This document shows positions 1,287 through 5,466 of a DNA stretch of 64,000 nt, in pieces. A program made the position numbers and the translations under genes. This DNA is from Rhynchobatus australiae (lineage: Eukaryota), in assembly GCA_034780895.1 (NCBI GenBank), contig JAUZTB010000078.1:12217962-12281961 (forward strand). Direction: 5' to 3'. Within the stretch, counting starts at the first letter, position 1. Every line of letters begins with the position of its first letter. Below the pieces are notes generated by a model. The model did not search any database. It saw only the letters and a program-made list of their open reading frames with translations, and had not been told where the DNA came from.

Positions 1287-4200
1287 ATGCCCGTCAGCGT
1301 GAGGACACAAGCCAGAAACCCGAGAGTTCGACAGATGTGTAAGTACAGAAACCCAGCATTGGAGGTTGTATCTCCTGTTCTGTTCTGCCATCGGTTCAGT
1401 TCCTTGTCCTTTCTCCAGAATGCGCTGCATCATGCTGGGTTGTATACTCCCTTGTGGTGAAGATCTGCAGAGTAATGATGAGCTCATCATAACTTTCAGT
1501 GTGGAAGACACACAGGGCATGATGCATCATGTAACCAGGGTCTCACCTTCTGTGAGTTTGCAGGAGTTTGGCTATGGAAGTGACTTCTGAGAGAAAACCT
1601 CCCACAGCTGGGATGCCAGACAGGTACTGGAACCCATCTCCAATTGAGAAATCAGCTTTGGGAGAAAATTGACTAATGTTAATTTTAACAGTCAGCTTTC
1701 AATAAACCGGAAAATCTCAGATCATTCTTAACTATAACCATGAATAAATATTGCTGTTACAGGCAGTGTTTCTCCTTGTTTCAGAGTAAATGTAACTTTC
1801 ATTGACCGATCAGGGCAGAGAATACCTGTGAAGGGGAAAGTAGGAGACAATGTCCTCTACTTGGCTCAGGATCATGGGATAGATCTGGAGGGTGAGTATT
1901 TACTGGAGAAAAGTTTAAATTCTTCACCTTTGCAGTTTCCTGAAAGAGATGGATAGATTGACTTAGTGACGTTGGTTGAGGGCTAAATGTTGGTCAGGGC
2001 ATCAGGCTGAACTCTCTTCCAATAATGCTATGAGATCTTTTATCAATACTGGAGTGGGAAAGGATAGAGCTCTGCTTTAAAATCCATCCGAAAGAACCTC
2101 TCAGTCTTGCATTGGGAGTGTCAGCCTTGATTTTTGTGGAGTCTCTGACGTGTGACTTGAACTCAAAACCTCCTTACTGTAGTGAGAATGCCTCCCACTG
2201 AACTTCAGTTTATAGTCCAGGAGGAGCACATACTAATCTTCAATATGTTTACCTCACTTATGTGCTCTTATTTGCTGAAAGCTTTATGAAATATCTGATC
2301 TTTTCTCCTGAGCATCCCTACACTTACACAAGTGTCCAATTATTTTTTAAAATACATGTACTTATTAAAATAGTTAGATTGGCAGGCAATTTGTGTGAAG
2401 AAGGATCACACAATCAGGGATGGTTAAGGTGAAATATTGTCCAGGATTCTCTTATCTCTCTCAATTCTCACGGGGGGGGGGTTAATGTTCTTCCCTTGGT
2501 AACAAAGAGGAAAGCACAGCCTAACTGGTTCCACCACCTGCTAGCAGATGTGGCCTGGTACATTGTAGGAGGAGAAGCTAGTTACAAACATGTCGCCTAA
2601 CCTTGGTCTCTCATGACCTCACAAGATAAGCAGCACGCCACAAAAAATGCTGCTGGCTGACGCACTCTCTCTCGCGTGCTCGCACTCTCTCTCATTCCCC
2701 CTCTCACAGCAGCTGTTAATCACACAGTTTGTACTCCATCTGTCCCCCTTGCCCTACCACTTCCTGCGGCATTCCCCAACTGCACTGTCTACCCCCACAC
2801 AGAGATCAAACCTCCAAAGGTAGGATAAGGAACATTACTGTACATCATCTCTGTTTAGGTCGAGACAGCATATTCCAGGATACATTTTGGTATTTTGCAA
2901 AGTCGTACATAGATACCTTGCTTAGTGCTGTGTATGTGTCCTGGGAATGTGAGGGCTATTGGAACTGGTGTTAAAATGGGTGATTACATGTGTTACTGAT
3001 GGCAGTGCTGTGTTGGCTCGGTGCTTCACTAGCTCTCCCAGAGCATAAAATGGTTAAAGTGATCACGTTGCTGTATAGTGTGGAGTGGATGAGCCTCTGA
3101 TACCGTGTGTGGTGGCTGTGACGAGGGCTGTGCTCTGACCAGCACAGTGGTGTGGCCCATTTTCTGGGAACCGGCAGCAGCTGCTCTCTGAATTGATGGA
3201 CCACCCGGTCTCTCTTGCCGTCTCCTTGCGTGTGACAGAAGCTGCTGTCTCTGTTCTCTGGCTGCACAGCTCTCCGCAGCCCGGGGATTTCTCAATGGAA
3301 ATGAGGTCAAAGGCCGGTGATAGTTGAGGCTTGCTCCTGCAGAGAAACCTCCTGTCCATCACGTCCAAGGGGGTGAGGAGACAGACTGCAAGGTCCGGGC
3401 AGTCGGTCAGCGTGAGGAGCAGGTTCTGCTGGTCTACAGCAGTGGTCTGCATGGACTCTGCTGCCCTGAGCCCCACAGCTCAGCGCTCACTGGTGCTTTC
3501 TCCTCTCACTCACCTGGTATCACCTCTCACAGGCCGCCTTGCACATTGCCTTCATGGTTCATCTGCTCCGAGCTGTGCTGTTTAATCACTGCAGGATCAC
3601 AAGTGGAGGGAGGGATTCCCAGCACAGTAGCCAAGCAGAAGTACAGGGAGTGGATATCTATCTGTACTTGTTGGGGCTCCAGAACCAAGAGCACCATAAG
3701 GAACCAGCACTCTATGGGGCAGAGCTAACTGTACGACCGGCGTACCCATCCGTCAACGTCCAGATCAGCAAACTTTGTTTTCCACTCATTGAGGCATCCC
3801 TGGTTGGCAGTGTCAGGTCACTGGGTGTTAGAAACACACCACAGAGGGCTTCATCAATGTTCTGAAGGCTGTTGACAGGGGAAGATACTCAGTGGAGAGG
3901 TCACCAACGAGCAGCATTGATTTAGGTAATTGGTTGAGCTGTTTTCACCCAGAGAGATGTACAGATCGTCAGGAGGTGGAGGAAGCAGAAATCTGCACCA
4001 CATTGGAAAGTTACCTGGTTGTTCTGTTGTTCTGTAACCACACCAGTTCGAGAGCTTCTCATCCGCAGACTGAATGACCTCTGCCTGTGTGAAAAATGCT
4101 TTACAATGAAATTACTGCTTGTAATGACTGATCAGTAACCCCTGGTGTGTGTGTGTGTGTGTGTGTGTGTGTGTGTGGGAGAGAACATCTATGTGGTGAG

Positions 4201-5466
4201 TCGGTGGTGTACATTCTGTGTCGATCCCGCAGGTTCAGGTATAGCTGAACGATGCCAGAGAGCTGTCCCTAGCCGCTCCCTCATCCCAACATTGCTCAGA
4301 CACCTGCCAGAGAGAAGGTTAGAATTCACCGAGGCTGCATTTGTTTTCCCTCCTAAGGTGCTTGTGAAGCTTCTCTGGCTTGTTCCACCTGCCACGTCTA
4401 TGTGAATGAAGAGCATTTTGATAAACTTCCTGAACCGGTTGAAAGGTAAAGATTATGTTGTGTATCCGCACTACAGCTCAGACACACTAATTTACTGATT
4501 CATCAGGTGCTGTATTATAGCTTCCATCTATAAAATAGTTATCTTCACAATCAGAATCACAATGCAATATTTTCAGCTTACGGGAATAGTGAACTAACCC
4601 TCTTACCACTGCCTTTAATGCTGGAAATTGCAAAGAAGCCTAGTTGTATAATTCCACTCCTTTCCATTGGTGAAGTGTCACTACACAGTCAGGCTGTGTG
4701 GTTCAACCTCCACGAAAGATCAAAATGTATTACACAGTAAAGAGCTGATAAACAGTTATCATAAAGTTACTTCTAATACCTTAGGTCTGTTTCTGAAGTG
4801 ATATTTGAATACCTCTGTTGGCGAACTCCCCTGAACCTGGTGAGTTCTCTCTGCCAGTTGGGTAATGGACTGATCTGAGCAACTGAATGCTGCTTCCTAA
4901 ACGCAAGCTGTTGTTGTGGATGGAAGTCGCCCCATGGGATGGGTGAAGCCTAAGGGTATCTTCAGCCGGTGTGTTTAGTAACCTTAGTGTATGTGTATAA
5001 TTCAGTTGCATAGATATCCTCATTCACCTACTATATCTAGTTATAGTAAAAGCTGTAAAACACAGTGATTTGATCATAAGTTGATTAACAGAAGTGAAGG
5101 AGACAAAAACACTAAGAATTCTGCAGCTGAAAGGATGTAATTAAAATGTAGATGTTAAAACAGTCAATCTCTATTGTAACTGAGGGTAGGAAATCATGGC
5201 AAAATGTATCCAAATCTATGGTCAGATATGGGGCAGGATGGGGCCATTTTAATACTTGATCAGATGTATGCACCAGGGTTTGCAATGAGATGAGTGTGTT
5301 TGTTTCCAGGGAGGAAGACATGTTGGACATGGCACCAGTCCTACAGCTCAACTCCCGACTGGGATGTCAGATCATCCTCACCAAAGAATTGGAAGGCATG
5401 GAGTTAACACTGCCCAAAATCACCAGGAACTTCTATGTGGATGGGCATGTGCCAAAACCCCACTGA
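1287..5466 (+). CDS. FDX2: Mitochondrial ferredoxin-2 (adrenodoxin-like, [2Fe-2S]), 5'-partial; exons 1287-1338, 1785-1891, 4358-4445, 5310-5466
   Basis: All introns are GT-AG with matching phases (52/107/88/157 nt exons). Spliced peptide: ..[133 protein letters not shown]. It has the four [2Fe-2S] Cys (C-x5-C-x2-C...C) and the FDX2-specific C-terminus [12 protein letters not shown]. The exon encoding the presequence is not in the window. Confidence 0.97.
1350..4960 (-). pseudogene. Putative decayed multi-exon antisense gene (LRR-containing) interleaved with FDX2 introns
   Basis: Minus-strand polypyrimidine-AG / GT pairs define exon-like blocks: ~4960-4813, 4303-4213, 4084-4015, 3868-3746, 3588-3514, from 3336, 1586-1547, from 1464. 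Joining 4084-4015 to 3868-3746 gives [22 protein letters not shown], which fits LxxLxLxxNxIxxLxxL. In-frame stops and frameshifts are present. Confidence 0.45.
4145..4176. repeat. (GT)16 microsatellite
   Basis: Directly visible in FDX2 intron 3. Confidence 0.95.

Follow-up and report, generated by a model that had tools for sequence, protein, structure and literature searches.

Exon-like blocks antisense to FDX2 in Rhynchobatus australiae: an old inverted-repeat element and a possible trace of a leucine-rich repeat gene

Results

The gene FDX2 of the ray Rhynchobatus australiae is read on the plus strand of the 64,000-nucleotide (nt) stretch analyzed here (the window; positions 12217962-12281961 of contig 78, within the 2.23-Gb genome), and is intact, its five exons joining into an open 178-aa frame. 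An initial annotation had proposed that a series of exon-like blocks on the minus strand of the FDX2 introns is the relic of a hidden, multi-exon leucine-rich repeat (LRR) gene. Our analysis favors, at a probability of roughly 50%, the reading that this supposed gene is a composite of an old inverted-repeat element and splice-like sites that arose by chance in intron DNA changing at a neutral rate, and our verdict on the blocks is that they are non-functional intron DNA. The blocks do not form one gene because two of the five in FDX2 intron 3 lie in a dispersed repeat, which probably also holds the donor of a third; what stands of the proposal is that nothing intact is present and that one junction gives a good LRR match. 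A transposon origin accounts for the region in part, as the repeat covers ~2900-3745 only.

A genome search with positions 3050-3650 resulted in at least 39 non-self matches at 68-88% identity, a lower bound since 40 of the 44 candidates were scored. Local matches from 30 repeat loci span ~3081-3631, with up to 31 of them covering 3200-3300, and contig depth is raised over the repeat core (3200-3336) in both sequencing runs. The copies are ~60-70% alike, and self-inversion across the element is seen at 10 of the 30 loci. An nhmmer profile made from 18 of these 30, leaving out the copy in the window, matches 3690-2826 at E 1e-72 and finds that copy on both strands (E 1e-72, 6e-32, and 2e-16). 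On its own, the window copy yields no self-inverted match by blastn, and its folding z is -1.7. When 35 arm segments were aligned to it, the window sequence stayed collinear across acceptor 3588 and across the donor region at 3514; a donor-like word occurs somewhere in that arm in 11 of the 35 segments. On all these matches, the blocks at 3588-3514 and from 3336 onward are repeat sequence. Across the repeat family (0.6-0.85 kb; copies L002-L005 and L039-L064) the arm carries donor-like and acceptor-like words. Additionally, 34 nt at the right edge of the repeat (2860-2893) are missing in a related species.

Toward the left, copies L003 (pairwise score 44 against a shuffle maximum of 27) and L054 extend the match to about 3744, the two copies reaching 3744 and 3731; none of the 30 repeat loci aligns past 3744. 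Donor 3746 is placed at the end of the element because these two copies, through two weak pairwise matches, extend the match leftward, and the repeat thus probably supplies the donor of the third block (block C, Table 1).

The repeat is likely a dead, non-autonomous DNA transposon with inverted arms. It resembles elements of the MITE and foldback types in its dispersed copies, its length of ~0.6-0.85 kb, its long inverted arms, and the lack of a Pfam match in the one long frame tested. This 137-aa frame (3476-3063) and three minus-strand read-through frames down to 3201 gave no Pfam match, as expected of an element that encodes no transposase. It differs from such elements in that its copies are only ~60-70% alike and its outer ends, which are decayed and of two kinds, are unlike one another, and neither a target-site duplication nor a superfamily emerged for it.

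The remaining part of the composite reading concerns the single-copy blocks. All of the splice sites claimed for the minus strand are present letter for letter (Table 1), as are the compact introns of 128, 146, 157, and 177 nt between the blocks, a TGA at 4061-4059 just upstream of the LRR-like motif, and the in-phase join of the intron-4 block across FDX2 exon 4; the FDX2 intron numbering was also right, with the blocks falling in introns 2, 3, and 4. The sites described as good donors do exist, but their quality was not seen to exceed chance, with donors 4213 and 4813 scoring 0.7 and 3.7 bits on an approximate, untrained weight matrix. True FDX2 acceptors score 9.1-10.4 bits and the three FDX2 donors scored give 5.0-10.0 bits, and acceptors of at least 7 bits occur at 2.9 per kb on the remaining minus strand. 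Three-block chains scoring at least as high as that of 4303-3746 were found 17 times in 297,793 control bases and 26 times in a second set of 453,627 bases, that is, about one per 17 kb of control DNA and about seven per window on both strands; part of this control DNA consists of loci of a young high-copy repeat recovered by a search with a repeat flank. Because equal chains are this common, the exon-like look of the three single-copy blocks alone is ordinary. The four-block chain is rarer (one control equal in 297,793 bases), and its fourth block here is repeat-derived. That one control chain, taken as a product of chance, lies in the same window on the minus strand at 8187-9113, mostly antisense to the last exon of the F-box/LRR gene, and scores 66.5 compared to 61.2 for the chain in the FDX2 introns.

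Comparison with a related species (organism B, sequencing run X2) showed ~95-98% identity over most of the stretch; single differences may be errors because contig depth there is only ~4-5. Over 3500-4900, three long contigs of this relative differ from the window at 42 letters, 36 of which are listed. Once the repeat, the CA run, and uncovered bases are excluded, differences fall on 11 of the 372 block bases and on 13 of the 567 single-copy intron bases (p 0.53), so that the blocks drift at a neutral rate, as shown with low power against one relative; both differences in FDX2 exon 4 are silent. The cross-species conservation foreseen for the blocks was thus not seen as constraint against this one close relative, an outcome that a pseudogene and chance both predict. 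The relative shares the TGA at 4061-4059, with no difference there among those listed. It is further disrupted by one missing nucleotide at 3798, which puts block C out of frame, by 7 extra nt within the tract of acceptor 4303, and by 5 extra nt in the 1547-1586 block, whose donor at 1547 has also lost its consensus through two changes (+3 and +5). Block 3588-3514 has six differences, all CpG-type. Given these lesions in both species, there is therefore no working gene in either; they do not separate a relic from chance. Likewise, disabling lesions (stops and an indel) together with neutral change, here measured with low power, would also be shown by chance DNA.

Protein and profile searches, which the initial annotation had proposed as a check, gave no LRR homolog in any search run. 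Pfam returned no family for six unspliced read-through frames and three of the four single blocks, and two weak matches, neither of them LRR, for the fourth. LRR_9 run over the genome gave 104 matches, the locus not among them. A word-seeded search of 5.8 billion proteins found three candidates for block C, none at E <=10, and 15 candidates for an unspliced frame holding both LRR-like pieces, again none at that level. This collection includes ray and shark proteins; an LRRCC1 exon of this genome matches ray proteins best, at 90-92% to Hypanus, Pristis, and Mobula, which makes the animal a batoid. No LRR homolog of the blocks was found in PDB, the ESM Atlas, or the ray's own genome. HMMER over 1.84 billion representatives gave four matches at E <=0.001, of which three are tandem-repeat proteins, one is a His-Thr run, and none belongs to an LRR family. 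The gap from block A to block B contains a (TG)n/(CA)n microsatellite (4137-4190), the source of spurious His-Thr protein matches. When the joined blocks were compared with 44 LRR frames of the same genome, 13 of 100 shuffles scored equally, and Rfam gave two matches at E ~0.3, far under the gathering scores. In the ray's own genome, 3640-4135, 4195-5300, 1340-1745, and 5500-6620 have self-matches only; a functional parent copy of the blocks was thus not found in it, which chance DNA would show as well.

Discussion

Several results weigh against a composite of repeat and chance, most of all the LRR-like motif. In SDS22-like LRR proteins the conserved segment LxxLxLxxNxI is followed by xxLxxL. 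The 21-residue peptide read across junction 4015/3868 is present as described, and a 17-residue stretch, running from 4052 in block B across to 3868-3856 in block C, fits the SDS22-class consensus as claimed, at six of seven positions with Thr for Ile. A matrix trained on 198 repeats (LRR loci of this genome plus four LRRCC1 proteins) gives this 17-mer 15.3 bits, a score that exceeds those of only 4% of the repeats used in training. That score was reached at none of 308,821 control six-frame positions (best 14.3) and by none of 8,848 control junctions (best 14.8), nor in the stronger sets of 1,942 and 59 junctions; in simulation 11 in 14.4 million positions reach it, with 3.4e-5 per junction, and ~0.001 would be expected per window for junctions as strong as 4015/3868. 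Taken alone, the full 17-residue motif across this junction is more than chance. A second LRR-like piece (LxxLxxLxL; 12 residues, 10.6 bits) lies one block upstream, in block A, and only 2 of 800 shuffles of the same composition score as high for the two pieces together (5 of 800 for the best segment). Neutral change is, in addition, equally expected of a pseudogene. The codon-bias test, in which none of the eight blocks stands above GC-matched DNA (P 0.15-0.62), also misses two of three true FDX2 exons, and the homology searches had limited power, a distant ortholog of a frameshifted relic being one that could be missed because the queries were unspliced single frames of possibly frameshifted sequence.

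These results are what leads us to consider, at odds somewhat short of even, that the blocks at 4303-4213, 4084-4015, and 3868-3746 are what remains of exons from an SDS22-like LRR gene once lying antisense through FDX2. Such a gene might have started at a CpG island common to it and the F-box/LRR gene, died before the two species split, and later received the repeat at 3745. Beyond the rare full-length motif across a strong junction and the piece in block A, the compact spacing of the blocks, their acceptors of 11.9, 9.0, and 7.2 bits, and the lack of a parent copy among the genome matches agree with this. The relative also lacks two of the three stops in the LRR-like frame of block A (p 0.034, post hoc), which is weak support because 29-codon frames holding a single stop arise often. 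The motif was, however, picked after the fact as LRR among many recognizable motifs and many windows, and the expectation per window rises to 0.03 for moderate junctions and 0.1 for unspliced frames. On a looser, partial-segment score the best segment is equaled by 63 of 1,500 random joins and the best two by 58 of 1,500; real control chains equal these in 6 and 7 of 109 cases, respectively, and in 2 and 2 of 49 among chains with G+C >=46%. Tandem repeats of ~22 residues are represented by a single one in frame: the TGA stands three codons before it, the residues after it form no second repeat, the block A piece is out of phase with the block B motif, and further pieces need frameshifts. Further points against a relic are the lack of any homolog or Pfam match, the 0.7-bit donor 4213, and donor 3746, which is probably the repeat's. 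A piece likened to an LRRcap is recognized by eye with frameshifts only, and the LRRCC1 profile gave negative scores. We consider it an even bet that chance produced the LRR-like stretch of the single-copy blocks.

The nearest-looking genes also fail as relatives of a relic. An LRRCC1 paralog, attractive by eye, was rejected on significance, as the joined blocks score 21.9 bits against 23.1 for the reverse strand in an alignment covering 14 of 120 LRRCC1-family proteins, and a centriolin-like paralog was rejected on intron phase (0 in the LRR gene that we take to be CNTRL, centriolin, and 2 here). An inverted duplicate of the F-box/LRR gene was rejected for want of a significant match to 1-6700, a DicB identity for block C (ESM Atlas 0.91, 157 shared features) because the family is inconsistent among the top matches, and six metagenome loci from a pattern scan as chance matches of 24-25 nt. 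A candidate first exon at 6546-6449 was likewise set aside, being single-copy with a weak donor (4.2 bits) and no coding signal. In the fuller proposal, blocks A to C would be all that is left of a vertebrate SDS22-like LRR gene not described so far, which was nested antisense across FDX2 in head-to-head orientation to the F-box gene and was lost in rays but may still be intact in sharks or chimaeras. We regard this as less likely than not.

It is improbable that a living antisense non-coding RNA is spliced from the blocks, with part of the repeat taken up as an exon. The donors at 4015, 3514, and 1547 score high, at 9.1, 12.5, and 10.4 bits, four-block chains scoring this well are as rare in control DNA as given above, and the CpG island at ~6560-7000 could drive minus-strand transcription, but the relative has lost the consensus of donor 1547, its acceptor 4303 tract is interrupted by 7 nt, and the blocks show no constraint. 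Most improbable of all is a reading in which blocks A to C come from an older transposon, or from an extended version of this repeat, as what is left of its internal coding region; they adjoin the left end of the repeat and are, like it, raised in G+C, but DNA and protein searches found no second copy and the 30 repeat loci stop at 3744.

Both readings that remain live, the composite and the relic, fall into known kinds, namely a non-autonomous inverted-repeat element and, for the relic, no more than a unitary pseudogene. SDS22-like LRR proteins (LRRCC1, centriolin, and U2A'-like proteins) are matched here by one 17-residue stretch and a partial upstream piece; they differ from it in having an in-frame tandem array and a Pfam LRR match, and the blocks neither align significantly with LRRCC1 or the 44 LRR frames of this genome nor share the intron phase of the centriolin-like gene. 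In the open-access literature we found no report of an antisense LRR gene in FDX2, of an antisense transcript in an FDX1L intron, or of an LRR unitary pseudogene in cartilaginous fish. One preprint describes a chicken ZGLP1 relict beside FDX2, a unitary pseudogene with a GATA finger that was established by tblastn at E ~1e-40 to an intact syntenic ortholog (bioRxiv 10.64898/2026.07.26.740788). The two cases are alike in being single-copy, disabled, and near FDX2, and differ in that an intact ortholog exists there and none is known here, and in the kind and place of the domain, a GATA finger beside FDX2 versus an LRR inside it.

The features are collected in Table 1. FDX2 is directly adjoined downstream by the F-box/LRR gene in this ray, followed by a peptidase C54 gene; we take these two, respectively, to be FBXL12, from synteny, and ATG4D. 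The CpG island at ~6560-7000, recognized from the sequence, lies ahead of the F-box gene and contains three degenerate 43-nt direct repeats with a spacing of 50-52 nt (6569-6713). Short pieces of other repeats, with loose ends, weak matches to several loci, and raised contig depth, lie at ~500-790 and 1963-2115. In birds, according to the preprint cited above, the gene order is ICAM5-ZGLP1-FDX2-RAVER1 (bioRxiv 10.64898/2026.07.26.740788). We noticed no frame resembling ZGLP1 on translating 1-7000 in six frames, the remaining genome not having been searched for ZGLP1.

Table 1. Features of the FDX2 region, with positions in the window and splice scores of the minus-strand sites
Feature	Position	Strand	Acceptor (bits)	Donor (bits)	Basis or remark
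FDX2 exon 1	-1484 to -1352, upstream of window start (locus L036)	+			part of joined five-exon frame
FDX2 exon 2	1287..1338	+			part of joined 178-aa frame
FDX2 exon 3	1785..1891	+			splice scores and joined frame
FDX2 exon 4	4358..4445	+			Fer2 motif; Pfam Fer2 E 8.5e-4, under curated cut-off
FDX2 exon 5, coding part	5310..5466	+			PDB best match Ferredoxin-2, mitochondrial (human), E 4.5e-25
F-box/LRR gene	6820..9608	+			Pfam F-box and LRR
Old dispersed repeat with inverted arms	2900..3745, ends approximate	.			genome matches and nhmmer profile
Intron-4 block	4813..4900, 5' end arbitrary	-		4813 (3.7)	weak donor, no defined acceptor
Block A, single-copy	4213..4303	-	4303 (11.9)	4213 (0.7)	strong acceptor, very weak donor
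Block B, single-copy	4015..4084	-	4084 (9.0)	4015 (9.1)	contains TGA 4061-4059; LRR-like motif begins at 4052
Block C, single-copy	3746..3868	-	3868 (7.2)	3746 (5.2)	donor coincides with left end of repeat
Block 4	3514..3588	-	3588 (5.6)	3514 (12.5)	within left arm of repeat
Block 5	3200..3336, from acceptor 3336, 3' end arbitrary	-	3336 (8.1)		repeat core
Intron-2 block	1547..1586	-	1586 (6.5)	1547 (10.4)	
Last block	1350..1464, from acceptor 1464	-	1464 (7.9)		single-copy, no coding signal

Under the composite reading, a repeat whose dispersal and age are evident would have inserted by transposition long ago and is now decaying, FDX2 would be spliced normally with the whole stretch, element included, removed along with its introns, the LRR-like junction would be the best-looking of many possible readings, and no protein would be made from the blocks. 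As found, the region, with an aged repeat in an intron and a relic that is unproven, is of little significance, and the case illustrates how exon-like blocks supplied by a transposon-like repeat can deceive the eye. An intact ortholog, if found, would give the early vertebrate gene set an unannotated LRR gene whose loss could be dated, and the relic reading, if true, would mean that this gene formed a fully overlapping antisense pair with the essential iron-sulfur gene FDX2.

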